58,816 bases of DNA from an uncultured virus (IMG/VR IMGVR_UViG_3300030329_003231). Lineage: Duplodnaviria > Heunggongvirae > Uroviricota > Caudoviricetes. Position numbers and translations under genes: made by a program. Shown one piece after another: positions 1,147 to 37,512 of the stretch. Every line of letters starts with the position of its first letter. The first letter of the stretch is position 1. The stretch lies in IMG/VR virus record IMGVR_UViG_3300030329_003231, one strand, 5' to 3'. Below the pieces are notes generated by a model. It made no database searches. It had not been told where the DNA came from and saw only the letters and a list, made by a program, of their open reading frames with translations.

Positions 1147-2075
1147 TACTTTACCTCCAATTTGTAATAATCATAAGTGGAAGTAAGACCTTCCAACAAC
1201 CCATAAGTAGGGGTCCATCCCATGGAAAAAAGTTTTGAAGAGTCTAATAATCTCTTTGATACTCCTTCTGGTTTGGTAATATCCCATTCTATCTTACCAT
1301 CATATTCTACCACATCCGATATCATTTGTGCCACTTCTTTTATTGAATGATCCTCTCCTACCCCAATATTAATAGGTTCATTATCATTATAATTATTCAT
1401 TACAAATAATAATGCATCTGCCAGATCTTCAACATAGATAAATTCTCTTCGTGCATTTCCAGATCCCCAACAAATTACCTCAGAACTCCGAGTCTTCTTT
1501 GCTTTATGAAACTTTGTAATCAAAGCAGCCATTACATGTCCCTTAGACTCACTAAATTTATCCCTAGGACCATAAATGTTATTAGGTTGAACAGAAATAA
1601 AATTATCTCCACACTCTTTCTTATAGGCTTGACATAATTTTATCCCTGCAATCTTTGCAATACAATAAAATTCATTAGCAGGAGACAAATAATTAGAAAA
1701 TAATGATTCTTCCCTAATAGGTTGATCGCATTCCTGGGGATAGGTAGCAGCAGATCCTACAAATAAAAGTTTCTTTACCTTATAATTATGAGCATTCTTA
1801 ATAACATTACTTTGAATATCTAAATTGTCCTGTATATATCCAACAGGATTATGAATATTAGATTGAACTCCTCCACATGAAGCAGCACATAAAAAAACAT
1901 AATCAGGTCTTTCTTTTTCAAAAAAATCTTTAACCTGAGAAGAATCTCTTAAATCTACTTCACTACTTGTTTTAAGAATAAGGTTTCTATATCCTTCTTC
2001 TCCTAATCTCCGAACAACAGCAGATCCTAAAAGACCATTATGACCTGCCACATAGATCTTATCTTCAATCCTCAT
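1146..2075 (-). CDS. fcl: GDP-L-fucose synthase/ColC-like epimerase-reductase
   Basis: [19 protein letters not shown] (YxxxK), [15 protein letters not shown]; follows gmd. Start trimmed to MRIEDK. Confidence 0.85.
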
Positions 2076-3138
2076 AGGTGTAACTACTATATCCATTATC
2101 AATTAATAATTGCTCTTTCTTAGCAATCTTAATATCCTTTTCCACCATCTCTTCAATCATCTGCTCTACTGTAATCTCAGGCTTCCATCCCAATTCTTTC
2201 CTTGCCTTAGTAGAATCACCCAACAACGACTCCACTTCTGAATCACGGAAGTACCTAGGACTAACTCCCACTACTTTATTACCTGTATTAGTATCAATTC
2301 CAATCTCTTCTAAACCAGAACCTTCCCATACGATATTCATACCCAAGACCTTACCAGTCTTCTCTACAAATTCCCTAACAGTAATTTGCTTCTCAGTGGC
2401 AATTACATAGTCATCAGCATTATCTTGTTGGAGCATCATCCACATTGCCCTTACATAATCCTTAGCATGTCCCCAATCCCGTTTGGCATCCAGATTTCCA
2501 AGATATAAACACTTGATCATACCAAGATGAATCCTTGCCATAATTCTAGTAATCTTCCTAGTTACAAAGGTCTCTCCTCTACGAGGACTCTCATGATTAA
2601 AAAGAATACCTGAACAAGCAAAAATATTATAGGACTCACGATAGTTCTTGGTGATCCAATGACCATAAAGTTTTGCTACTCCATAAGGAGAACGAGGATA
2701 GAAAGGAGTCTTCTCTGTCTGTGGATTCTCCTGAACTAATCCATACATCTCTGATGAAGAAGCTTGATAAAACTTAGTCTTACCAATCAATCCCAGAGTT
2801 TTAATAGCTTCCAAAATACGAAGAACACCCACGGCATCTCCATTAGCAGTGTATTCTGGTGTCTCAAATGAAACTTTTACGTGACTTTGTGCTGCAATAT
2901 TATAAATCTCATCCGGTCTTATAGTATTAATAATATTAACTAAATTTGAGGAGTCAGTCAGATCTCCATAGTGCATAAAGAAGTTTTTATTCTTAGCAAA
3001 AATATGATCTACCCTATCAGTATTAAAAGAAGAACTCCTTCTTTTAAGACCATGAACTTGATATCCTTTTTCTAATAAAAATTCAGCAAGGTATGACCCA
3101 TCTTGACCGGTCACACCCGTTATTAACGCAGTTTTCAT
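2065..3138 (-). CDS. gmd: GDP-mannose 4,6-dehydratase
   Basis: [57 protein letters not shown]. Confidence 0.97.
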
Positions 3139-3487: not shown

Positions 3488-3495
3488 TATTTATG
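3488..3495 (-). promoter_or_regulatory. T4-type (gp55) late promoter
   Basis: CATAAATA about 30 nt upstream of the ATG. Confidence 0.5.
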
Positions 3496-3567
3496 CCACC
3501 TATTGGACTTGAACCAACGACCTGAGCGTTACTAATGCCCTGCTCTACCAGACTGAGCTAAGATGGC
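3494..3567 (-). tRNA. tRNA-Thr, anticodon AGT (CCA not encoded)
   Basis: GCCATCT TA GCTC AGTCTGGTA GAGC A GGGCA TTAGTAA CGCTC AGGTC GTTGG TTCAAGT CCAAT AGGTGGC A: full cloverleaf, loop TT-AGT-AA, one A31-C39 mismatch. Confidence 0.88.
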
Positions 3568-4054: not shown

Positions 4055-4222
4055 TTATGTTTCTGCACTACCTCCTGTTGTATGCAGACGAATATATTCA
4101 TCGGATGGAACCAAAACTGCACTTACATCTCCATCCGTCACTGTGATCTTCTCCCCCTTTTCCACTCTTTTAATAACATTATCAGGATCTTTTGCATATT
4201 CCTCTATGGTTATAGTAGTCAT
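4055..4222 (-). CDS. Phd/YefM antitoxin-like small protein (55 aa)
   Basis: Not in track. MTTITIEEYAKDPDNVIKRVEKGEKITVTDGDVSAVLVPSDEY matches the Phd N-terminal pattern; ATGA overlap with talC. Confidence 0.6.
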   Translation of the reverse strand: MTTITIEEYAKDPDNVIKRVEKGEKITVTDGDVSAVLVPSDEYIRLHTTGGSAET

Positions 4223-4866
4223 AAGATACTTGCTGCATAATCCTTATCAAACTGATCTAATCCTTTATCAGTAAGAATATGATTATACATCTTCTCAAAG
4301 ACAGTTGGTGGCATCGTAACAATGTCAGCACCTACACTAAAACAATCAGCAACACTATGAACATCACGTAAAGACGCAGCAAGAACTTCTGTTCCTGTAA
4401 CCATTTGTTGCTGATATAAAGAAGAAATCTTTGCAATCAATTCCACTCCGTTAAAGGAATTGTCATCTACTCTTCCCACAAACGGTGAAACATATTTTGC
4501 ACCTGCCTTTGCAGAAAGTATTGCCTGAGAGACAGAAAATATCAAAGTAACATTAACTTTAATACCTTCCAAAGAAAGTTCTCTACATGCATCAAGACCA
4601 TCAGAAGTACAAGGAACTTTAATAGTTGCACACTTACCAAACTTCTTATGCAATCTCTTACCTTCAGAGATCATATTTTCCTTACTACCAATGACTTCCA
4701 TACTGATATCTTTAATACCAATATCTTTTAGTTCTTGATAAACTTCCTCATGCTTATGCCCACTTTTCCTAATAAGGGTGGGATTGGTGGTGAGACCGTC
4801 AATTAATCCGGTCTTAAAATGTTTACGAACGACATCTGTTTCAGCAGTGTCAAGAAAAATTTTCAT
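4219..4866 (-). CDS. talC: transaldolase (TalC/MipB family)
   Basis: KIFLDTA, GLTTNPTLI, TIKVP, NVTLIFS, YVSPFVGR, LAASLR. Confidence 0.97.
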   Translation of the reverse strand: MKIFLDTAETDVVRKHFKTGLIDGLTTNPTLIRKSGHKHEEVYQELKDIGIKDISMEVIGSKENMISEGKRLHKKFGKCATIKVPCTSDGLDACRELSLEGIKVNVTLIFSVSQAILSAKAGAKYVSPFVGRVDDNSFNGVELIAKISSLYQQQMVTGTEVLAASLRDVHSVADCFSVGADIVTMPPTVFEKMYNHILTDKGLDQFDKDYAASIL

Positions 4867-8140: not shown

Positions 8141-9064
8141 CTAATATTTATAAAATTCCACTGTTTCTTGGAGTCCTTTATCGAATGATATGGTAGGAAT
8201 CCATCCAGTTCTCTGTGTAAGTTTAGAAAAATCAGTTCCATACCTTTTATCTACTCCAGGTCTCTCATTAGAAAAACCAATTAAACTATTAGGTTTATCT
8301 AATATATCTAAAATCTTTTTGGTTACCTGAATATTTTGTAATTCACATCCACCACCAATATTAAATTTCTCATTTAAAATATTGTGTTTATCTAAAGTCC
8401 AAATAGCATCACAATGATCATCTACATGTATCCAATCTCTTATTTGTTCACCCCCATCATGCATATAAGTTATTTCATTCCTCAATGCATTGGTAACAAC
8501 CTTAGGAATTAATTTTTCCTCATGTTGTCCTGGACCATAATTGTTTGAAGAGCTAGTGATAAGATAAGGAAGACCATAAGTATTATGCCAACTGGTTACA
8601 AAATGTTCTGCTGCTGCTTTAGTAGCAGAGTAAGGATTACGAGGATCATAAGGAGTTGTTTCCTTAAAAAGTTCTTCATCATCATAATCAAGAGAACCGT
8701 AAACTTCATCGGTAGAAATATGATGGAATTTCTCAACCTTAACTTGAAGACTAGCATTTAAAAGATTAATCGTTCCATTAATATTAGTACTAATAAAAGG
8801 ATTAGAATTTGTAATAGACTTGTCTACGTGACTTTCTGCTGCAAAGTGAAATACTTTATTTGGTTTAAACTTATTAAAAAGATAATTTACATGATCTTCA
8901 TTTCTGATATCACACCAAATAAAATGACAATGATCAGGAATATATTTTTCATTAGCAGCATAAGTTAAACTATCCAATACAATAACTTCATCATCAGTTA
9001 CCTTATGAAGGTAGTGAAGAAAATTACTGCCTATAAATCCTGCTCCGCCTGTTACTAATATCAT
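8141..9064 (-). CDS. rmlB: dTDP-glucose 4,6-dehydratase
   Basis: LVTGGAGFIGSN, HFAAESHVD, HISTDEVYG, PYSATKA, NNYGP, RDWIHVDDH. Confidence 0.93.
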   Translation of the reverse strand: MILVTGGAGFIGSNFLHYLHKVTDDEVIVLDSLTYAANEKYIPDHCHFIWCDIRNEDHVNYLFNKFKPNKVFHFAAESHVDKSITNSNPFISTNINGTINLLNASLQVKVEKFHHISTDEVYGSLDYDDEELFKETTPYDPRNPYSATKAAAEHFVTSWHNTYGLPYLITSSSNNYGPGQHEEKLIPKVVTNALRNEITYMHDGGEQIRDWIHVDDHCDAIWTLDKHNILNEKFNIGGGCELQNIQVTKKILDILDKPNSLIGFSNERPGVDKRYGTDFSKLTQRTGWIPTISFDKGLQETVEFYKY

Positions 9065-9126: not shown

Positions 9127-9303
9127 TTAATCGTCTGGTTCTAATGAAATTATTTCTAATTCATTCTCATCTTCCAACTCAATCCATTCTTCAAACTCTT
9201 TATATATAGCATCTTTATTACCAATGGATTGTGCTGACTCTACTTTATCAATTGACCACTCACGAATATGAGCAACAATATCATCAGTCGAGTCCACCTT
9301 CAT
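9127..9303 (-). CDS. small acidic conserved hypothetical protein
   Basis: MKVDSTDDIVAHIREWSIDK...AIYKEFEEW; the track's longer ORF overlaps the next gene. Confidence 0.65.
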   Translation of the reverse strand: MKVDSTDDIVAHIREWSIDKVESAQSIGNKDAIYKEFEEWIELEDENELEIISLEPDD

Positions 9304-9751
9304 AATAGTCTTTTCTAAAGTACCGGGAGAGGATGTTACTATTGTAGTACTTTGGTGTTCCGTTGTCAAGGGATTCAGTGAGGACGTTGTTTGTAAAGAG
9401 CTGTCTCGTTTCTTCGTAGTTTGTTTTGCCAGCTGTGTGATGTAAGCTGAGGATAACTCGGCTAAAACACGATCTGCCCAATCGTTGAATCTCTTCTTTA
9501 AGTTCCGGACAAGACCCATAATACTTCTTCCAATCAGATTCAGATTTTACTTTTCTTTTTTTACCTCGCGGAGTTCTAAACTTCCAGAAATACTTACGCC
9601 CGATGTACTTCCTTCCTGTTTGAACATTAGTAATACAGTAGACGAAACCGAAGAAATTGTCAATATCAGCAGTAGTAAAAGTTGTACCCTTATATGTCCA
9701 GGGGTTCTCATAAGTTCCTTCACCCACTGTGGTCTTTGGGGTGGTTTCCAC
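9284..9751 (-). CDS. GIY-YIG-like T4-superfamily protein
   Basis: GFVYCITN...KYIGRK...WKKYYGS...YEE...YN motifs. Confidence 0.75.
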   Translation of the reverse strand: METTPKTTVGEGTYENPWTYKGTTFTTADIDNFFGFVYCITNVQTGRKYIGRKYFWKFRTPRGKKRKVKSESDWKKYYGSCPELKEEIQRLGRSCFSRVILSLHHTAGKTNYEETRQLFTNNVLTESLDNGTPKYYNSNILSRYFRKDYYEGGLD

Positions 9752-9775
9752 TTTCCAATCTTTATAGTCATATTC

Positions 9776-10273
9776 TTATTTAGTTTGAATCTTAAATGCT
9801 AAACTCAGTCTCATAGGACAAATCTGATAAGAAAATGAATACCCCTTATGCATAATCCTTCCAGGAAAAATCACTAATCTATTCTGTAAAGGATGAATAA
9901 CGGTTGGTGAATTTGGTGATGTCATAATTTCAGTAAACCCACCCCACCCATACTCATAGTGTTGTACATACAACAATGCAGTTAAATCACATCCATCCTG
10001 ATGAAATGATCCCTCTCTTCCATACCATTGTCCATTAAAATATACTCTTTCTAATTTATAATCACCATCTAACTCGTCCTTAACTTTATTAAACAAATAA
10101 GAATTAAAAAACTCATCATGAGACACCTCTCTGATTAGAAATGGTAGATGATTACTCTTTCTAATATCAGTTTGTTGTATCTTCCATTCCTGACAACTAG
10201 TCTCACCTATAACCTTCTTAAGATCTATTGGATCTAAAAAATTATCAATAATTTTTATTGGGAAGTCATGCAT
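9776..10273 (-). CDS. 2OG-Fe(II) oxygenase (prolyl hydroxylase-like)
   Basis: HQD...GG.T...NRLVIFPG..MH...RLSLAF. Confidence 0.85.
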   Translation of the reverse strand: MHDFPIKIIDNFLDPIDLKKVIGETSCQEWKIQQTDIRKSNHLPFLIREVSHDEFFNSYLFNKVKDELDGDYKLERVYFNGQWYGREGSFHQDGCDLTALLYVQHYEYGWGGFTEIMTSPNSPTVIHPLQNRLVIFPGRIMHKGYSFSYQICPMRLSLAFKIQTK

Positions 10274-10982
10274 GGGTTTTCTTTTTTAACATCTCCCACA
10301 CGTCTTTATAACCATCTACCTGAAATGCATATCCCATATGGTTTTCGGCAATAGCAATGGCTAATGGATAATCATTTCCATTTTCATCCATTCTATCACC
10401 AAAGAAACGTATATTATCCCCTTCCTTAAAATCTCTTAATATCTGACTCTTATCAGCCCCTTTAAGAGATATATCCACACCTGTCTCACCACCTACAAAA
10501 GCATATAAATCGGGGAATCTGTCATTAAATCTTCCAGCAATATCTACTCTTTCCTCCCTTTCTTTATCCCATTTCTTATATACATCTCTTTCTTCAAAGG
10601 TAGCACCCCTTCCCAAAATACTAAAATTCACACATCCTGGTCTCTTTTCTATATGAGTACCCGTCTTAATGGGAAATACACTATAATCTAATTCATCTTG
10701 TAAGAATCTCCGTGCCTCATCAGGAAGTTCCCATGGCGTTCTATAAACATTCTTCTCCCCTTCATAAACATCATTACCAGCACAATTATATACCCTCTGA
10801 GAGGCATTAAACAGACCCTCACCTATCTGTTCTATGGTCTTCTCCCTATTACTTCCTGTAACCAGATAAACATCATTCTTATGAGCAAAATCAAGAAAGT
10901 ACTCATGAAAATCAGGATCAATTTTTCTCCTACTAGGAGTTAATGTCCCATCAATATCAAAAATAAATTTTAAATTTTCCAT
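10266..10982 (-). CDS. HAD-IIB phosphomannomutase/phosphoglucomutase (eukaryote-type PMM family)
   Basis: FDIDGTLTPSR, LVTGS, IEKRPGCVNFSILGR, GGETGVDIS, FFGD...GNDYP. Confidence 0.85.
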   Translation of the reverse strand: MENLKFIFDIDGTLTPSRRKIDPDFHEYFLDFAHKNDVYLVTGSNREKTIEQIGEGLFNASQRVYNCAGNDVYEGEKNVYRTPWELPDEARRFLQDELDYSVFPIKTGTHIEKRPGCVNFSILGRGATFEERDVYKKWDKEREERVDIAGRFNDRFPDLYAFVGGETGVDISLKGADKSQILRDFKEGDNIRFFGDRMDENGNDYPLAIAIAENHMGYAFQVDGYKDVWEMLKKKTHA

Positions 10983-13351
10983 ATATTTTTACAATATTCT
11001 CTTATAGAACGATCTGATGAGAAGAATCCTGATCTTGCGATGTTAATGCAGGACATCTTATTCCATATCTTCCGATCTCTCCATGCACTACTTACTCTAT
11101 CCTGTGCATCAAGATAATCAGAAAAATCGGCAAAGACACAGAAAGGATCATGATTCATAAGATTATCTACCAAAGGTTTAAAGTATTCTTTATCTCCTTG
11201 ACTAAAATGTCCACCCTTAATAAGGTTTATTACATCCCATAATTCAGAACTCATATGACTCTTTGGATCATATCCTTTCTGCCATAATTCTGCTATGCCT
11301 TTCTCATCATGTCCAAAGAGGAAAAAGTTTTCCTCTCCTACCAAATCCCGTATCTCTACATTAGCACCATCAAGAGTTCCAATAGTTAAAGCACCATTCA
11401 TCTGGAACTTCATATTACCTGTACCTGATGCTTCTTTACCAGCAGTAGAAATTTGTTCTGACAGATCAGCAGCAGGATATACTTTCTCTCCTAACTTCAC
11501 ACTATAATTTGGTAAGAAAATTACTCTTAACTTACCATCCATATCAGGATCATTATTAACCACCTCTGCTATATGGCAAATAAATTGTATTATCATCTTT
11601 GCCATATAATATCCAGGTGCTGCTTTACCTCCAAAAATAACAGTACGTGGAACGTAATCTCCACCATTCTTAATCCTAATATATTGATAAACAATCCATA
11701 AAGCCAAAAGATGTTGTCTCTTATATTCATGTATCCTTTTAACCTGCACATCAAACATACTAGAAGGATCTACTGATATACCCAAATTATCAAAGATATA
11801 GGTAGCCAGATGATGCTTCCCAAGTACTTTTGCTTCACCCAGTTTATCTACAAGAGAAGGATCAAATTTATTCTCTAACAAGTGAAGAGAATCCATATTA
11901 GTAATCCACTCTGTTCCAACATATTCATCAAGAACTTCTGCAAGAGCTGGATTGCAGGATGCTACCCACCTTCTGGGAGTAACGCCATTAGTTACATTCG
12001 TAAACTTATGTGGCCATAAATCATAGAATTCTGGCATCAATTGAGTCTTAACTAATTCAGAATGTAATGCTGCAACTCCATTAACATGATGAGAACCCAC
12101 AGTAGCAAGGTGGGCCATACGCACCGACTTATTACCATGTTCATCAATGATAGACATCTTCTCTAACATAGAATCATCACCGGGATATTGAAGTCTTACT
12201 ACCTGTAAGAACCGACGATTAATCTCATAGATAATCTCCATGTGTCGAGGGAGAAGAGTCTTAAACAATTTAAGATCCCATTTCTCTAATGCTTCTGGTA
12301 AAAGCGTATGATTAGTATAAGCAATAGATTGATGTGTTATTTCCCATGCCTGATCCCATTCTATATGCCGTTCATCAACCAGAAGTCTCATCAACTCTGC
12401 TACTGCGATAGAAGGATGAGTATCATTTAATTGTACTTGCCAATGTTCAGAGAATTGCTCTATGGGAACCTCCATTCTATCCAAACTATTAAGCATATCC
12501 TGTAAAGAAGCACTTACAAAGAAGTGTTGCTGCTTTAATCTTAGTATCTTACCTTGGTCTGTACCATCATTAGGATACAATACCTTAGAGATAGTCTCGG
12601 AAGATACACTCTGCTCTACTGATCCCAAGTAATCACCAATATTAAAGGCATAAAAATCAAATGTTTCCGTAGCATCTGCTCTCCATAATCTTAATCTATT
12701 ACAAGAATTAACTCTATATCCCAACTGTAATACATCATAGGGAACCGCCACTACTTGTTCATCAGGAACCCATCTTACTCTATAATTACCTCTATCTGAC
12801 ACATAATTTTCTACTCTCCCACCAAATCCTACAAAGACAGACTCATCTGGTTGACACAGTTCCCATGGCCATTCTCCATGTAACCAATTATCAGTGATTT
12901 CTATTTGTTGATTATCTTTGATTAACTGCTTAAAAATTCCATACTTATATCTTATACCATAACCAGTAGCAGGTACTTTAAGACTGGCTAGGGACTCCAT
13001 ATAACACGCTGCAAGGCGACCTAATCCACCATTACCTAGTCCAGGTTCTTCTGCTACATCTAATATTTGCTCTAATGAATAATCATATTCAGACAATGCT
13101 TTAACTGCCTCATCCCTTATACCCAAACCAATAAGATTATTATTAAGTTGTGGACCAATTAAAAATTCGGCGGAAAGGTAGGCTACTTCTCTCTTCGGAT
13201 GGCGAGGAAGATCCAACCAATAAGTCATCATCTGATCTCTTACAGCATAACTCAGTGCCATATAAAAATCATGAGGTGTCGCAATTTCAGGACGTTTTCC
13301 TAATGTATAAAAAAGACGCTCCTTAATACCATTATAAAGATTATTTTTCAT
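10970..13351 (-). CDS. glgP: glycogen/alpha-glucan phosphorylase (GT35)
   Basis: GLGNGGLGRLAAC, LNDTHP, YTNHTLLPEALE, NGVTPRRW, KRIHEYKRQ, PLP site EASGTGNMKF, GFFSSDRSI; 793 aa, intact. Confidence 0.97.
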   Translation of the reverse strand: MKNNLYNGIKERLFYTLGKRPEIATPHDFYMALSYAVRDQMMTYWLDLPRHPKREVAYLSAEFLIGPQLNNNLIGLGIRDEAVKALSEYDYSLEQILDVAEEPGLGNGGLGRLAACYMESLASLKVPATGYGIRYKYGIFKQLIKDNQQIEITDNWLHGEWPWELCQPDESVFVGFGGRVENYVSDRGNYRVRWVPDEQVVAVPYDVLQLGYRVNSCNRLRLWRADATETFDFYAFNIGDYLGSVEQSVSSETISKVLYPNDGTDQGKILRLKQQHFFVSASLQDMLNSLDRMEVPIEQFSEHWQVQLNDTHPSIAVAELMRLLVDERHIEWDQAWEITHQSIAYTNHTLLPEALEKWDLKLFKTLLPRHMEIIYEINRRFLQVVRLQYPGDDSMLEKMSIIDEHGNKSVRMAHLATVGSHHVNGVAALHSELVKTQLMPEFYDLWPHKFTNVTNGVTPRRWVASCNPALAEVLDEYVGTEWITNMDSLHLLENKFDPSLVDKLGEAKVLGKHHLATYIFDNLGISVDPSSMFDVQVKRIHEYKRQHLLALWIVYQYIRIKNGGDYVPRTVIFGGKAAPGYYMAKMIIQFICHIAEVVNNDPDMDGKLRVIFLPNYSVKLGEKVYPAADLSEQISTAGKEASGTGNMKFQMNGALTIGTLDGANVEIRDLVGEENFFLFGHDEKGIAELWQKGYDPKSHMSSELWDVINLIKGGHFSQGDKEYFKPLVDNLMNHDPFCVFADFSDYLDAQDRVSSAWRDRKIWNKMSCINIARSGFFSSDRSIREYCKNIWKI

Positions 13352-13470
13352 TATCCCCCTATAAGTTTGTCATAATCATCGGCAGCATCTAAAATTGCTC
13401 TTTTCATATCTTCGATATCCCATTCTATTTCCTCAGAGTTTGAATCCTGAGAAGGTGTCTTTTTTGACAT
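13351..13470 (-). CDS. 39-aa acidic hypothetical protein
   Basis: MSKKTPSQDSNSEEIEWDIEDMKRAILDAADDYDKLIGG; overlaps the nrdB end and is TAATG-coupled to glgP. Confidence 0.45.
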   Translation of the reverse strand: MSKKTPSQDSNSEEIEWDIEDMKRAILDAADDYDKLIGG

Positions 13471-14593
13471 CTTGTTTGATTCCTCCGACGACATAGCTTT
13501 CTACCTCCGTTTCTTGTGGTGCTACTTGAAGTCCTTTTGACGAAATCCAATGTTCAGTCCAAGGTAATGGATTATTTTTCAATGGAATATCATACTGAGG
13601 TTTCAAACCGATAGACCTAAGGCGACGATTTGCAATCCACTCAACATACTGATGAAGAAGTCTATCATTTAATCCTATCATACTTTCATCTTTAAACAAA
13701 TAATCCGCCCATTTCTTCTCTTCATTTACACATAAATCAAACATCTTATATGTCCACTCTTCTTCTTCCTTACAAATCTCTACCATATCAGGATCATCAC
13801 CCTTCTTCCAGTTATTTAATATATTTTGCGTGAGGGCGAGATGTTGATTTTCATCTCTGGCGATAAGGGATATAATTTTTGCTGACCCTTCCATAAGCTT
13901 GTTTTCACCAAATGCAAAGGAGCAAGCGAAAGAGACATAAAAGCGAATACCTTCAAGAATGTTAACATTTGCAACTGCCCTGTATAAGTGTTTTTTTAAA
14001 TCTTTAAGTGTCCATGCTGCGGAAGGGGATCCCTGTGAACTTGCTTTCCATTGACTACTCGTACCCCACTCTTGTGCATAGTTAATAAAATCATCATAAG
14101 ATTTGGTAACACTTGCAGCACGTTCCAGAATTTTTTCATCAGTAAGAATAGTATCAAATACTTCAGAAGGATCTGAGTATACATTCTTAACAATATAAGT
14201 ATAAGATCTACTATGAATCATCTCCATAAAAGACCAACACTCCATACATGCTTCTAACTCAGGTAAAGAACAATAAGGAATGAATGCCATACCAGGTGCT
14301 CTACCTTGAACAGAGTCAAGCATAGTCTGATACTTCAAATTAGAAGTAAAGATATGCTTCTGTGCGGGACGTAATGATTGAAAATCTCCACGATCTTTCT
14401 GTAAAGATACCTCCTCTGGTCTCCAAAAATAACCCAGTTGTTGTTTAGTTAAATTTTCAAATTGAGGATACTTATAAGAATCATAGCGTTGAATACCTAA
14501 AGGCTTACCAAAAAACATAGGTTGTTTCTTAGTATCAACCTCATCGGTATTAAATACCGTCATTCCTTTTATTTTAGATTGCACAGGACTCAC
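13433..14593 (-). CDS. nrdB: ribonucleotide reductase class Ia, beta subunit
   Basis: FWRPEE, LDSVQGR, EMIHSRSY, EGIRFY, RDENQH, QVAPQETE; start uncertain (14593 or 14563). Confidence 0.97.
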   Translation of the reverse strand: MSPVQSKIKGMTVFNTDEVDTKKQPMFFGKPLGIQRYDSYKYPQFENLTKQQLGYFWRPEEVSLQKDRGDFQSLRPAQKHIFTSNLKYQTMLDSVQGRAPGMAFIPYCSLPELEACMECWSFMEMIHSRSYTYIVKNVYSDPSEVFDTILTDEKILERAASVTKSYDDFINYAQEWGTSSQWKASSQGSPSAAWTLKDLKKHLYRAVANVNILEGIRFYVSFACSFAFGENKLMEGSAKIISLIARDENQHLALTQNILNNWKKGDDPDMVEICKEEEEWTYKMFDLCVNEEKKWADYLFKDESMIGLNDRLLHQYVEWIANRRLRSIGLKPQYDIPLKNNPLPWTEHWISSKGLQVAPQETEVESYVVGGIKQDVKKDTFSGFKL

Positions 14594-16919
14594 ATTCACT
14601 TTCCTCAACATTACTTAATTCATCTAATAATTGATTTAATTTAGTTTTACCTTGTATACCGACCTCCCCTGCTTCATCATGCCAACCAATAGGATGTGCA
14701 GGTTCATCTTCATCATGTTTATTATCATATGTATTTTGATAATAAGATGTCTTCCATCCATACTTATAAGTTGTAAGAAGATCTTGTGCCATAACACTGG
14801 TAGGAACCTCAGATCCTTCATAATTTTCTGGATTATAAGACCAATTTCCAGAAATTGCTTGATCAAAGAATTTCTGCATTACTGCTACAACATTAATATA
14901 CCCTCTATTGCTAGGCATGTCCCATAATAAAGTATAGTTATTCTTTAAAGAACCATAGGAGGGAACAATTTGCTTAAGAGGTCCTTTCTTTGATTTCTTA
15001 ACGGACAAGTATCCACGAGGAGGTTCGATTCCATTGGTAGCGTTTGACACAACGGAACTGCTCTCCGAAGGCATTTGTGCGGACAATGTTGAGTGCCGTA
15101 AACCGTGCTCCAAGATAGATGCTCTAAGAGATTCCCAATCATGTTGAAGTTCCTGCTTACTAATGTCATCGACATCACTCTTATATGTATCAATTGGCAG
15201 AATACCATCAGCATATTTGGTTCTTCCAAAGTCTTCACACCATCCTTTCTCCTTCGCAATCTCATTAGATGCCTTCAAAAGATAATACTGGAATGATTCT
15301 GAAAGACCATGAACAGCATCCCATGCCTCCTGTGAATCATAATTAAATCCAAGTTTAGCAAGATAATGTGCAAGACCAATAAACCCTACTCCAAGGGATC
15401 TACGTGCCTTTGTAGCACGTTCTGCTGCTAGGACAGGATAATGTTGATAATCAATTAATTCTTCCAATGCACGAACCGATAAATCACATAGTTCTTCTAA
15501 TTCTTTATCTGATCTTACCATACCCACATTAATAGCAGATAAGATACATAAAGCTATTTCCCCTGTACGATCATCAATATGTTGAAGAGGATAAGTGGGA
15601 AGAGTAATTTCCTGACAAAGATTACTCATCTCAACCTTATCTTTGAAAGATGAATGCTCGTTACAATGATCTATATTCATGATATAGATACGACCAGTCT
15701 CTGCTCTTTCCTTTAATAAATCAAGAATTAATTCTTGTGCTCCAATTGTTGACTTGGGGACTGATTCATCTGATTCGTAACGAATATATAAGTCATCAAA
15801 CTGATCGGTCCCAAAACTCTCATACAAACCAGGAACATCATGAGGGGAAAAAAGCGTGATTTCCTTATCCTGGATAAAACGCTCATAGAATAACTTACTT
15901 AACTGGATGGAGTAGTCGAGTTTTCTGACTCTGTTGTCTTCGGTTCCTTTGTTGTTTTTGAGGACGAGGATGTCTCTGATCTCTTGGTGCCAGATAGGAA
16001 AATGGACAGTTGCCGATCCACCTCTGATACCGTTTTGAGTACAGCATCTGACAGTGCTCTCAAATTTTTTGAGGAAGGGGACCACGCCTGTGTGCTGTAC
16101 TTCTCCTCCCCTGATTTTGCTGTTGATTCCTCTGATTCTCCCCGCGTTAATACCGATACCAGCCCTCTGTGCGACGTATTTGCCAATAGCCATATCAGAG
16201 CTAAAGATACTATCGAGGGTGTCATCAATATCAACCAAAACGCAAGATGCAAATTGACGAATAGGGGTCCGTACTCCTGCCATGATCGGCGTTGGGATGT
16301 TGATTCTGTGTCTACTTGTTGCGTCGTAGTATCGTCTGACATAATTAAGCCTCTTTTCTTTGGGATATTCTGCGAAGATCGTCAATGCGATCATCATGTA
16401 CATAAACTGTGGAGTTTCGTATACACCGCCTCCACTACGGTCTTGTACCAAATATTTATCGACTACTTGGCGAAGTCCTGCATAAGTAAACAAAAAGTCA
16501 CGATCATGATCGATCCAACTATTTACTTTATCAATTTCCTCTTTCGAGTACTTACTAAATATGTCTTTATCATAAACCTCACCACTTGTACAAGTCAGGA
16601 TGTGGGTTTCCAAATGAGGAAGATCTCTCATCTTTCCATACAAGCTTTTTCTTAAAGCAAAAAGTAATAATCTAGCTGCCACAAATTGATAATTAGGATG
16701 CTCTAAATCAATAAGATCACTAGCACTACGAATAAGAATCTCTTGAATCTGTTCCGTAGTAATACCATCATAAAACTGAATACCAGACTTCATCTCTACT
16801 TGACTAGCAGAGACCCCTGCAAGGTCCTTGGTTGCCTCTTCAACCATTCTATGCATCTTTTCTAGGTCGAGAGGTTCAATACTCCCATTTCTCTTGTGGA
16901 CTTTGATGCCGTTGCTCAT
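14574..16919 (-). CDS. nrdA: ribonucleotide reductase class Ia, alpha subunit
   Basis: ATP cone, TPIMAG, QFASCVL, SNLCQEI, C-terminal CESC. Confidence 0.98.
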   Translation of the reverse strand: MSNGIKVHKRNGSIEPLDLEKMHRMVEEATKDLAGVSASQVEMKSGIQFYDGITTEQIQEILIRSASDLIDLEHPNYQFVAARLLLFALRKSLYGKMRDLPHLETHILTCTSGEVYDKDIFSKYSKEEIDKVNSWIDHDRDFLFTYAGLRQVVDKYLVQDRSGGGVYETPQFMYMMIALTIFAEYPKEKRLNYVRRYYDATSRHRINIPTPIMAGVRTPIRQFASCVLVDIDDTLDSIFSSDMAIGKYVAQRAGIGINAGRIRGINSKIRGGEVQHTGVVPFLKKFESTVRCCTQNGIRGGSATVHFPIWHQEIRDILVLKNNKGTEDNRVRKLDYSIQLSKLFYERFIQDKEITLFSPHDVPGLYESFGTDQFDDLYIRYESDESVPKSTIGAQELILDLLKERAETGRIYIMNIDHCNEHSSFKDKVEMSNLCQEITLPTYPLQHIDDRTGEIALCILSAINVGMVRSDKELEELCDLSVRALEELIDYQHYPVLAAERATKARRSLGVGFIGLAHYLAKLGFNYDSQEAWDAVHGLSESFQYYLLKASNEIAKEKGWCEDFGRTKYADGILPIDTYKSDVDDISKQELQHDWESLRASILEHGLRHSTLSAQMPSESSSVVSNATNGIEPPRGYLSVKKSKKGPLKQIVPSYGSLKNNYTLLWDMPSNRGYINVVAVMQKFFDQAISGNWSYNPENYEGSEVPTSVMAQDLLTTYKYGWKTSYYQNTYDNKHDEDEPAHPIGWHDEAGEVGIQGKTKLNQLLDELSNVEESECESCAI

Positions 16920-35572: not shown

Positions 35573-35841
35573 TCTAAAAGATCTAAGTACTTTTCAAGGA
35601 TAGTTGGAGAAGGTTCTGCCAATGTAAGTATTTTATCAGATCCCATCATAAATGTGGTATCCCTTGTGACACTTGTTAAAAAGGGCTCTAAAACAGTTTG
35701 ACCTGTCTCAGTATTAATAACAAATGGATTAAGAAGTTTACAATCAGGCTCTCCAATATCAGCAGAACCTACTTCCTCAATCTCACTTATCAGATACTGA
35801 TGATTTGTCAGTGCTAGTACCTTTATTATCTTGTCGGCCAT
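35569..35841 (-). CDS. conserved cyanophage hypothetical protein
   Basis: DIGEPDCKLLNPF...SDKILTLAEP. Confidence 0.75.
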   Translation of the reverse strand: MADKIIKVLALTNHQYLISEIEEVGSADIGEPDCKLLNPFVINTETGQTVLEPFLTSVTRDTTFMMGSDKILTLAEPSPTILEKYLDLLE

Positions 35842-36166
35842 AGTTCAATACATCCTCTAAATACATTTTCTTTAATTTATCTATGGGGTCAACCATAGTG
35901 ATCAACCAATCAGCAGTCATTGGTATAACTTCATCTTTCGCTAGTGCCATCCAAGGAAAAAGTGAAACCTCTAATCCTGCTTTTTGTGGACCTGTATCCT
36001 CTTTCATTTCGTGGGGATTTTTCAAAGTCACTACACAAGGTTTCTTTAAAAAATATCCTACCACTCTTTTCGGTCTATCTATATCACCTTCTGTTCCAGC
36101 TGTCATTTCACTTATATCAGCAATGACATCTTCTCCTGATTTGAGTAGTAATAACTTAACTGTCAT
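35783..36166 (-). CDS. conserved cyanophage hypothetical protein
   Basis: KLLLLKSGEDVIADI...PW...DWLITMVDP. Confidence 0.8.
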   Translation of the reverse strand: MTVKLLLLKSGEDVIADISEMTAGTEGDIDRPKRVVGYFLKKPCVVTLKNPHEMKEDTGPQKAGLEVSLFPWMALAKDEVIPMTADWLITMVDPIDKLKKMYLEDVLNYGRQDNKGTSTDKSSVSDK

Positions 36167-36184
36167 TTTACTTCCGTAATATTT

Positions 36185-36383
36185 GGGTGGGAGGTTGGAT
36201 TAATGTATACCAACAAGTACAGGGCATTGCTACATTAGTAGATTTTTACTGTACTATCTGAGACCCGACTGGTAAGTCGATTCTGGTTTTCAACCAGCAG
36301 CACCACCTGTGTCTCATCACCTTAACTAGCCTTATGCCAGCAAGTTTGTTCAGTCACTCCCGTGTCGAACCCGTCGATTCAAC
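36185..36383 (-). ncRNA. structured RNA, probably the manA motif
   Basis: Closing stem GGGAG/CTCCC; helices CTGGC/GCTAG, GAGAC/GTCTC, CTGGTT/AACCAG, CGACT/AGTCG, GTACAG/CTGTAC, TTGG/CCAA; core ACAGGTGGTGCTGC recalled from manA; own promoter upstream. Confidence 0.7.
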
Positions 36384-36389
36384 AAAAAA

Positions 36390-36418
36390 ATTATAACATA
36401 AAAAAGGAGGGGATGCAA
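36390..36418 (-). promoter_or_regulatory. sigma70-type promoter for the ncRNA
   Basis: TTGCAT-17 nt-TATAAT. Confidence 0.7.
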
Positions 36419-36426
36419 CCCCTCCT
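36400..36426 (-). terminator. intrinsic terminator after hsp20
   Basis: AGGAGGGG/CCCCTCCT stem plus T run. Confidence 0.75.
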
Positions 36427-36449
36427 ATCCATCTCGAACTCATCTCTAT

Positions 36450-36881
36450 TTAGAGATAGTCTTTACGAGCATGATGATCCGGAACTATTTTGCCCAGTTC
36501 TACTACCAGTAGTCCGTCATTGAATCGTACATCTCGTATTTCGGTATCATCTGTGAGTGACCAGATCCTAGTGAAAGACCGCTGGGCCAGTCCTTTATGG
36601 ACAAATTCTCCAACATCTTTTGATTCTTCTTTTTTGCCTTCCACATATAGTTTTCCAAACTCCGTATAGACTCGTACTTCATTTTTCTTGAAGCCGGCAA
36701 GCGCGATCTCCAACCTCGATTCGACATTATTTACTTGGACAATATTATAAGGGGGATAGTTGGAAGAAGTGTCGAGATCCCAGAAACGATTTAAATAATC
36801 GTCCATTCCAATACTGTTCTTACTAATCTTATCCAGTAAAGCTGGAAGATTTTCGGCATGATACCTGGCTAGTGTGCCCAT
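36450..36881 (-). CDS. hsp20: small heat shock protein
   Basis: YPPYNI, EIALAGF, GLAQRSF, DGLL. Confidence 0.95.
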   Translation of the reverse strand: MGTLARYHAENLPALLDKISKNSIGMDDYLNRFWDLDTSSNYPPYNIVQVNNVESRLEIALAGFKKNEVRVYTEFGKLYVEGKKEESKDVGEFVHKGLAQRSFTRIWSLTDDTEIRDVRFNDGLLVVELGKIVPDHHARKDYL

Positions 36882-36943
36882 GATAGTAGCTCCTTTTCTA
36901 AGCGAGTGTGTGTTGTGTGAACCCTTTCGGCGTTCACTACTAA

Positions 36944-37081
36944 TTATACACGATCTCTTAAAAAGCGAGGTGATGATTGCCGTCTTAATTTCTTCGGTTT
37001 CCTACCATGAAGATGGGTAAGATAGAAATTTGAATAGTTAACGATCACTAAAAGGATTAATAATATAGTATTAACCGTCAT
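36944..37081 (-). CDS. possible 45-aa TM plus basic-tail miniprotein
   Basis: MTVNTILLILLVIVNYSNFYLTHLHGRKPKKLRR...; ATGA overlap with the regA stop. Confidence 0.4.
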   Translation of the reverse strand: MTVNTILLILLVIVNYSNFYLTHLHGRKPKKLRRQSSPRFLRDRV

Positions 37082-37512
37082 TCTTCTTGAGGTTTCCCTT
37101 TCTTACCAATGTTATACTTTTGCTCTAAAATCCAATCTCCCTTATCTTTATAAGAAAGAACTTTGATTTGATTGAGTGGAGCAATATCAGAAACACATTC
37201 TGATTTTACTACTGCTATGAGACCCCAATCAGCAAGGAGACGAGCAATACGATTCCGACGCTGAACATCGTTAGAAGTAAGGTTAGCGTGTTTGCCATCA
37301 AGAGCGAATAACTCCTTAAAATGCACGATATAATATCTACCCTGCTTATGCAGAATATGGCAACTTTGGTAAAGTTTCTTTTCTTTTCTTGACGCTACAC
37401 CAATTCTTGTTAAGGTTTCCCTAACTTTAAGAAAGTCATCGGGTTCATTAAGAGTAACCTCTACCATTTGGTCTTGTGACCACTTGACTTCAGGTTCTAC
37501 CGTAGTAGTCAT
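37078..37512 (-). CDS. regA: translational repressor RegA
   Basis: DDFLKVRETLTRIGVAS, LYQSCHILHKQGRYYIVHFKELF. Confidence 0.97.
   Translation of the reverse strand: MTTTVEPEVKWSQDQMVEVTLNEPDDFLKVRETLTRIGVASRKEKKLYQSCHILHKQGRYYIVHFKELFALDGKHANLTSNDVQRRNRIARLLADWGLIAVVKSECVSDIAPLNQIKVLSYKDKGDWILEQKYNIGKKGKPQEE

Follow-up and report, generated by a model that had tools for sequence, protein, structure and literature searches.

A predicted glycogen phosphorylase gene in the replication and nucleotide-supply regions of T4-like cyanophages

A 58,816-nt stretch of DNA from an uncultured virus of the Caudoviricetes (IMG/VR record IMGVR_UViG_3300030329_003231, the whole of which is referred to here as the window) carries glgP, a gene for a 793-aa alpha-glucan (glycogen/maltodextrin) phosphorylase of family GT35 at positions 10970..13351 of the minus strand. 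The gene is intact, phage-borne and under purifying selection. It lies directly downstream of the ribonucleotide reductase genes nrdA and nrdB and overlaps a second gene, encoding a 238-aa mutase of the HAD-IIB eukaryotic-type phosphomannomutase (PMM) family (10266..10982, minus strand). Taken together, the results described below are probably best explained if glgP serves the phage as a functional auxiliary metabolic gene whose product has the predicted activity of an alpha-1,4-glucan phosphorylase.

The family assignment was based on profile searches and on alignment to solved enzymes. GlgP matched PF00343 over positions 2-713 of 713 with 1030.4 bits (cut-off 27), TIGR02093 with 1128.9 bits (cut-off 552.9) and the PHROG family phrog_23782 at E 9e-280, and did not reach the cut-offs of the E. 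coli-type equivalogs NF011562 (875.5 vs 1546 bits) and NF011561 for MalP (892.9 vs 1273 bits). Aligned to rabbit muscle phosphorylase, the phage protein keeps the pyridoxal phosphate (PLP) lysine K648, H348, N455, the group K538/R539/Y543/K544, the glycine loop G108-L110 and E640/S642/G643/T644 (E640-T644). We take the rabbit counterparts to be K680, H377, N484, K568, R569, Y573, K574, the glycine loop and E672-T676, with the numbering offset checked on the alignment. The PLP and catalytic residues are invariant in all 56 distinct phage copies, and pairwise dN/dS against six phage relatives was 0.065-0.121, with dS near saturation. Thus, the claim of an earlier first-pass annotation, made from the letters of the window alone, that the gene encodes an intact 793-aa glycogen phosphorylase with its catalytic and PLP motifs agrees with PF00343, TIGR02093 and the rabbit alignment alike.

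The identity of the window as part of a T4-like cyanomyovirus is unmistakable from the core genes found by profile searches, which include gp61 primase, nrdA, nrdB, gp41 helicase, uvsX, gp43 polymerase, regA, gp62, gp44, gp45, gp46, gp47 and uvsY. Auxiliary genes typical of cyanophages (talC, hsp20, a bilin reductase, cobS and mazG) are also present. All long open reading frames (ORFs) of the window are on the minus strand, and those from gp61 to segE overlap or abut. The large subunit of ribonucleotide reductase, with an ATP cone, is encoded by nrdA (14574..16919; PF02867, PF00317 and PF03477) and the small subunit by nrdB (13433..14611; PF00268, 196 bits). The position of glgP just downstream of nrdB and its 13-nt overlap with the PMM-family mutase gene, both of which had been noted in the first-pass annotation, hold as described, the mutase ATG lying within the last glgP codons. 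A Shine-Dalgarno-like purine run precedes the glgP ATG, and a promoter/terminator scan gave no terminator-like site on the minus strand between gp61 and segE, the counts being at shuffle level. Across the glgP-mutase region the G+C content is 0.35-0.37, equal to that of the flanks, and a host-like base composition is absent.

Close relatives of GlgP were found in 226 stretches of IMG/VR, and the best 80 of these 226, with 73-100% identity, were kept as loci and annotated by tblastn with the window proteins and by Pfam searches on cluster representatives. T4-like core genes flank glgP in the window and in all 80 related loci examined. The exact GlgP protein occurs on 42 contigs from five sources. 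In one sequencing run (X2), distinct from the possible source of the window, a single 3754-nt contig spans positions 9731-13484 with one mismatch and bridges a 165-aa ORF, the mutase gene, glgP and the end of nrdB, and a run from another study (X3) yielded contigs covering 9731-11563 and 12939-13462. A chimeric assembly at the glgP borders, named in the first-pass annotation among the findings that would undo its reading, is excluded by these 226 viral stretches and by the independent contigs that bridge both junctions.

Run X3 also contains a low-depth contig (2.6) that joins position 10974 to 13352 with 5 other letters between, exactly without the glgP ORF and with the mutase gene kept. This joint is a natural variant lacking glgP. 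Such variation in presence between close relatives is the sole observation in favour of the idea that glgP does nothing in infection, being either a passenger or a product of faulty assembly. We consider this idea very improbable given the 226 viral stretches, the three conserved genome positions described below, the bridging contigs, the invariant catalytic residues, a dN/dS near 0.1 and a G+C content equal to that of the flanks. One further copy (PBPX01000015.1, 8.3 kb) is filed in an 'Actinomycetota' metagenome-assembled genome (MAG) and has the order gp62-regA-GlgP-hsp20-DUF6561-gp43; it is a T4-like cyanophage fragment that was binned into a bacterial MAG.

Three architectures were recognized among the 80 loci. 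The majority (type A) have the gene order gp45-gp44-(dam)-gp62-regA-GlgP-[purS]-[manA RNA]-[mutase]-hsp20-[purM]-DUF6561-gp43. Here glgP lies in an island between regA and gp43 that also holds purS and purM, and regA is directly upstream of glgP in 53/80 loci, with a median overlap of 13 nt. Type B, represented by the window, has the order gp61-nrdA-nrdB-GlgP-[mutase]-segE. A search of IMG/VR for glgP with the synteny of the window, as had been suggested with the first-pass annotation, showed that type B does recur but as a minority, with nrdB directly upstream in 14 of the 65 loci having enough upstream DNA. Type C comprises two loci (L080 and L082) that are syntenic with the cultured isolate S-SCSM2R. 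With neighbours that serve replication and nucleotide supply, glgP is placed in keeping with a role in supplying precursors. In the window, the regA-to-gp43 island (35783..37512, minus strand) was found by profile searches to hold only regA, hsp20, a manA RNA and DUF6561. The manA RNA (RF01745, 172.5 bits) is full-length and lies at 36184-36384 of the minus strand, between hsp20 and DUF6561; in related loci this RNA often stands just ahead of the mutase gene or after segE.

The gene segE (9284..9751, minus strand; PF19835, 184 bits) encodes a SegE-type GIY-YIG endonuclease. It was considered as a special companion of glgP, and this was rejected because segE is what normally stands beside nrdB: in 49 of 60 unselected cyanophage nrdB loci (L326-L404 and L009) it follows nrdB immediately. 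Both glgP and the mutase gene insert between nrdB and segE, and this junction is therefore a hot spot beside a gene of the homing-endonuclease type.

At the junction of nrdB and glgP in the window there is a small ORF of 39 codons (13351..13470, minus strand), which begins in the final 38 nt of nrdB in another frame and ends in a stop codon that has one base in common with the glgP ATG. It is kept with coding-type substitutions in three relatives (L006, L016 and L026) and is absent in three others (L013, L042 and L046), in which the nrdB stop codon and the glgP start overlap directly. Elsewhere, seven GlgP loci (one being L080, at 11677-14217) carry near glgP a gene for an 846-aa glycine cleavage P-protein (PF02347, 524 bits), which is an unusual metabolic gene for a phage and occurs in S-SCSM2R-like and other viral contigs.

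The relationships of the phage proteins were examined in a tree of 89 rows (IQ-TREE quick search, LG+G4, rooted on Enterobacter GlgP). Its rows were 26 phage copies taken from all three types, one in two of the cellular loci of 800-920 aa, four copies from plasmids and 28 unnamed representatives of 780-880 aa. All 26 phage GlgPs, including those of S-SCSM2R and of the contig from the 'Actinomycetota' MAG, form a single clade with an SH-aLRT support of 100 and a long stem (0.63). The sister clade, with a joint support of 97, holds plasmid copies of Nostoc and Acaryochloris, beta- and gammaproteobacterial copies and Aureibacter. The nearest cellular relatives obtained, in a set that does not contain the GlgP of Prochlorococcus and marine Synechococcus, are 52-58% identical at 950-1025 bits. 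The PDB chain 9wvu falls in the same band (1014.8 bits), and the best match among representative sequences has 53% identity. A scan of genome contigs by exact 8-residue words of phage GlgP returned only Proteobacteria, a few others and the MAG-derived phage contig (L084); being blind to picocyanobacterial GlgPs, it says nothing about them. Within the phage clade, type B GlgPs are nested among those of type A, and the genome context changes at least 5 times in a FastTree of 54 rows. Our interpretation is that the gene was acquired once, long ago, and later moved from one island to another.

The phage enzymes are minimal forms without terminal extensions. Among the complete phage GlgP ORFs, 62/64 are 791-803 aa long, and the remaining two, of 813 and 830 aa, are probably start over-calls. 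Most cellular relatives start at least 18 residues earlier, a difference that longest-ORF calls overestimate, and 66 of 73 extend 16-26 residues beyond the phage C-terminus. The plasmid-borne GlgP of Nostoc (annotated with 843 aa) has 22 more N-terminal and 19 more C-terminal residues, and chain 9wvu (855 aa) 31 and 22 more, respectively; the Acaryochloris plasmid copy has 875 aa. The rabbit muscle enzyme is longer by 22 residues at the N-terminus, whereas E. coli MalP exceeds the phage protein by just 6 and 2. The earlier description of the phage enzyme as N-terminally shorter than host enzymes therefore stands in comparison with cyanobacterial-type enzymes, relative to which the C-terminus is shorter too, but not in comparison with E. 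coli MalP, which has the same length.

With regard to the missing C-terminus, according to two papers (bioRxiv 10.1101/2022.11.21.517384 and PMC12892837), a C-terminal regulatory peptide is a hallmark of cyanobacterial GlgP, and Cys837/Cys842 form a redox switch in Synechocystis GlgP1. Lacking this peptide, phage GlgP would act outside that host redox control.

Compared with known enzymes, the phage protein scores higher against the cyanobacterial type than against E. coli MalP. Cyanobacterial GlgPs, such as GlgP1 and GlgP2 of Synechocystis, share its GT35 catalytic residues, and the Nostoc and Acaryochloris copies in the sister clade are 55-56% identical to it; they differ in their length of 843-875 aa, with an N-terminal extension and a C-terminal regulatory peptide that are both absent in the phage. 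E. coli MalP (PDB 1e4o and 1l5v) has the same minimal length (796-797 aa), also lacks regulatory ends and aligns from 18-792 to 24-793. Its score is 765 bits, that of the cyanobacterial type about 1000, and the phage protein stays below the MalP equivalog cut-off noted above. The closest known system is ORF260 of the Synechococcus phage S-SCSM2R, annotated as 'carbohydrate phosphorylase' (PQ898602), which belongs to the same viral GlgP clade, is 72% identical, has 791 aa with trimmed ends and comes from a T4-like cyanomyovirus. Unlike glgP of the window, it stands after a peroxiredoxin gene and before a GT24-like gene and KdsB/KdsA, in a genome without the mutase.

The mutase is likewise a conserved phage protein. 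It matched PF03332 (PMM) with 75.2 bits (cut-off 22.4; profile 5-204 of 221) and fell just under TIGR01484 for the HAD-SF-IIB subfamily (40.0 bits, cut-off 41.8). HAD motifs I-IV are present (D9, D11, S44, K178, D196 and D204), together with R114/R125/R132; the roles of these residues as HAD motifs and as arginines of the sugar-phosphate site are presumed from the PMM literature. The motif residues and the three arginines are conserved in 77-78 of 78 distinct copies, and dN/dS was 0.061-0.121. The clade to which the protein belongs is phage-specific; at E<=1e-5 it has 3643 metagenomic relatives, and the top 120 of these are all at least 61% identical. Solved eukaryotic-type PMMs (PDB 8b5v, 5ue7, 2i54; human PMM1/PMM2) share the HAD-IIB core, the four motifs, the three arginines and a full-length alignment (residues 3-230, E 1e-25 to 1e-17), but their identity is only about 30%, as is that of the HAD-type alpha-phosphoglucomutase of Lactococcus lactis (PDB 4bnd). 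Eukaryotic-type PMMs turn over glucose phosphates as well as mannose phosphates. On its sequence, the phage mutase may prefer either mannose or glucose phosphates, and an action on glucose phosphates is a prediction.

The mutase gene follows GlgP in 18 of the 56 loci with at least 900 nt of downstream DNA, at a distance of no more than 1.2 kb in 17 of them and no more than 30 nt in 6; by type, it accompanies GlgP in 16/42 loci of type A and 5/19 of type B, one of these five being 4.7 kb off. The codons of the two genes overlap in the window and in two relatives (L036 and L083). For comparison, 80 regA loci out of at least 600 matches were drawn regardless of either gene, and 71 islands were closed: both genes were missing from 67, while 2 held the mutase alone, 1 GlgP alone and 1 the pair. 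The mutase thus occurs beside GlgP in 16/42 type A loci versus 2/69 regA islands without GlgP, an odds ratio near 20 (Fisher p 1.7e-6), a value to be read with the reservation, which counts against the pairing, that the samples were differently drawn and their members are phylogenetically related. On the GlgP tree, mutase presence changes at least 10 times.

Described cyanophage carbon genes (talC, zwf, gnd and cp12) drive host carbon to the pentose phosphate pathway for dNTP synthesis. They act downstream of glucose-6-phosphate, whereas GlgP would come in one or two steps further upstream and open the carbon store itself. In the scheme that we consider the most probable, although with appreciable doubt, glgP is an auxiliary gene for nucleotide supply and the mutase an optional helper. 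GlgP, made presumably along with the replication and nucleotide-supply genes, would cleave host glycogen, or maltodextrin ends, with phosphate to give glucose-1-phosphate, and the trimmed enzyme would do so outside the redox control exerted on the host enzyme through its C-terminal peptide. Conversion of glucose-1-phosphate to glucose-6-phosphate would fall to host phosphoglucomutase or, in roughly one in three of these phages (that of the window among them), to the phage HAD-type mutase. Glucose-6-phosphate would then probably flow into the oxidative pentose phosphate route, for which the window encodes the transaldolase TalC (4219..4866, minus strand; PF00923, 182.8 bits; phrog_440) and the complete genome of S-SCSM2R both zwf and talC. 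Ribose-5-phosphate and NADPH would be used by the neighbouring ribonucleotide reductase, with a possible side stream to NDP-sugars. This route from glycogen through glucose-1-phosphate, then glucose-6-phosphate, to the pentose phosphates is favoured because the purS/purM cargo and the nrdAB neighbourhood indicate nucleotide supply.

Several observations weigh against parts of this scheme. Profile searches did not find zwf (glucose-6-phosphate dehydrogenase) in the window, nor in five GlgP-bearing viral fragments, a weak negative since these are 20-35% complete. The length that phage GlgP shares with E. coli MalP means that maltodextrins, and not glycogen, may be its substrate. Removal of the C-terminal region from Synechocystis GlgP1 lowered activity to the level of the reduced enzyme, according to the same literature (bioRxiv 10.1101/2022.11.21.517384 and PMC12892837), and loss of the tail need therefore not give a more active phage enzyme. 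The mutase is nearer to PMMs (1e-25) than to the Lactococcus HAD-type alpha-phosphoglucomutase (1e-5). As for the pairing of the two genes, 72/80 mutase loci have no GlgP in the available DNA, the enrichment in type B is not significant (5/19 vs 6/58, p 0.13), and among 60 assessable nrdB loci both genes were missing from 52, while 6 held the mutase alone, 2 GlgP alone and no locus the pair.

These last points bear on a different explanation, in which the mutase is a true phosphomannomutase that provides mannose-1-phosphate for GDP-mannose-derived sugars, its adjacency to glgP results from the use of common hot spots, and GlgP is served by host phosphoglucomutase. The window does encode a GDP-mannose 4,6-dehydratase (gmd, 2065..3138; TIGR01472, 570.8 bits, cut-off 415), after which come genes for an Fcl-like reductase (1146-2102) and for a DegT aminotransferase (1-1146), all on the minus strand and the latter two assigned by profile search. 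Phosphomannomutases are the top sequence matches of the mutase, manA RNA often adjoins its gene, and the 72 mutase loci without GlgP speak for the same explanation, the gene standing directly after regA in 27 of the 80 mutase loci and directly after nrdB in 19. The identities of the two proteins are also discordant, with 87% for GlgP and 61% for the mutase in L050/L051 and 81% and 84%, respectively, in L063. Against it stand the roughly 20-fold enrichment of the mutase beside GlgP in the regA island, the overlapping codons of the two genes in three loci and the activity on glucose phosphates noted above for eukaryotic-type PMMs. Of the isolates that carry the mutase, the two with complete genomes (S-SSM7 and P-TIM68) have neither a gmd over the cut-off nor a nucleotidyltransferase nor zwf, and many gmd-bearing isolates are not among the mutase matches; a dependence of the mutase on phage gmd was rejected on these grounds. 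Altogether, we regard a purely phosphomannomutase function as possible but clearly less probable than the nucleotide-supply scheme.

The first-pass annotation had described glgP and the mutase gene as a glycogen mobilisation module. The part of this claim that stands is the enrichment of the mutase beside glgP in the regA island; the part that does not is a general coupling, given that the mutase follows in only 18/56 GlgP loci, that GlgP is upstream in only 8/80 mutase loci, two of which are the window's own lineage, and that the two proteins diverge discordantly. The pair is joined above chance in the regA island, each gene is dispensable to the other, and they form no fixed operon. Because they are mostly apart, diverge discordantly and are separated in the glgP-less joint of run X3, glgP and the mutase gene are better viewed as separate cassettes at two hot spots (regA|hsp20 and nrdB|segE).

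The glucose-1-phosphate released by GlgP could alternatively go mainly to nucleotide sugars (dTDP- or UDP-glucose and derivatives) that modify the host surface or the virion, and not to the pentose phosphate pathway. An RmlB-like NDP-sugar 4,6-dehydratase gene (8141..9064, minus strand; TIGR01181, 360.1 bits, just below the cut-off of 365.1) is located on the same strand 1.2 kb downstream and also stands after segE in related loci, and GlgP of S-SCSM2R sits among glycosyltransferase and KdsA/KdsB genes. However, profile searches of the window gave no nucleotidyltransferase that would take glucose-1-phosphate or mannose-1-phosphate into the RmlB-like and Gmd pathways. NTP_transferase (PF00483) was also absent from a 43.9-kb sister contig and four other viral fragments, which are uninformative at 20-35% completeness, and the complete genome of S-SCSM2R has no nucleotidyltransferase. 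Moreover, most of these phages have glgP in the replication module beside purS/purM and not beside sugar genes. We therefore judge this fate of the product to be unlikely, although not as improbable as glgP having no function.

A stronger form of the nucleotide-supply scheme can be put forward tentatively, as a suggestion that we think may well be wrong. The tail-less, redox-escaping GlgP and the mutase, if the latter is a HAD-type alpha-phosphoglucomutase unrelated to the host phosphoglucomutase of the alpha-D-phosphohexomutase type, could together form a two-enzyme bypass beyond host regulation that leads from glycogen to glucose-6-phosphate in light or dark. Were this so, a main supply of the ribose and NADPH that phage DNA synthesis needs in the ocean would be the host carbon store, and not ongoing photosynthesis.

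The statement of the first-pass annotation that glgP lies outside the standard set of described cyanophage auxiliary genes was borne out, as literature searches gave no paper describing a cyanophage glycogen phosphorylase as an auxiliary gene. The gene itself is already present in databases, as S-SCSM2R ORF260, as PHROG 23782 and, for relatives, as a JGI 'starch phosphorylase'; in PHROGs the families of both GlgP and the mutase are listed with 'unknown function'. In the available text of the S-SCSM2R paper (PMC12801897), ORF260 is not discussed and the word 'phosphorylase' refers to another enzyme only. According to a review (PMC10452541), synthesis of host glycogen phosphorylase continues during infection by S-SM1, and the enzyme is one of the host proteins that have homologues in phages or in fragments of viral metagenomes. 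Cyanophage GlgP is thus common in uncultured ocean viruses and essentially undescribed, with one cultured carrier, S-SCSM2R.

With described cyanophage carbon genes acting after glucose-6-phosphate, a phage phosphorylase that opens the glycogen store itself would bear on infection at night or at depth, and on the fixed carbon diverted in infected Prochlorococcus and Synechococcus. It also bears on the movement of auxiliary genes, as one gene occupies three positions, always in islands beside replication genes. The cultured carrier makes the question testable at the bench.

Some further features were noted. The 165-aa ORF that follows the mutase gene with an 8-nt overlap (9776..10273, minus strand) resembles 2OG-Fe(II) oxygenases, with weak matches to PF13640 and NF052475 and membership of phrog_274. 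A 130-aa ORF at 9127-9519 (minus strand), overlapping the 3' portion of segE in a different frame, is matched by tblastn at 55-77% in many related loci; it may be a gene in its own right or only mirror the conservation of the DNA. In seven loci (L030:948-2075 and six others), an ORF of 375 aa that precedes gp62-regA weakly matches DruA of the Druantia system (E 4.8e-7, 29.7 vs a cut-off of 27 bits). Just upstream of talC in the window, a 55-aa ORF (4055-4222, minus strand) gave a sub-threshold match to Phd/YefM antitoxins (25.2 vs 29.8 bits), and a tRNA-Thr (AGT) gene lies at 3494-3567 of the minus strand, between talC and gmd.

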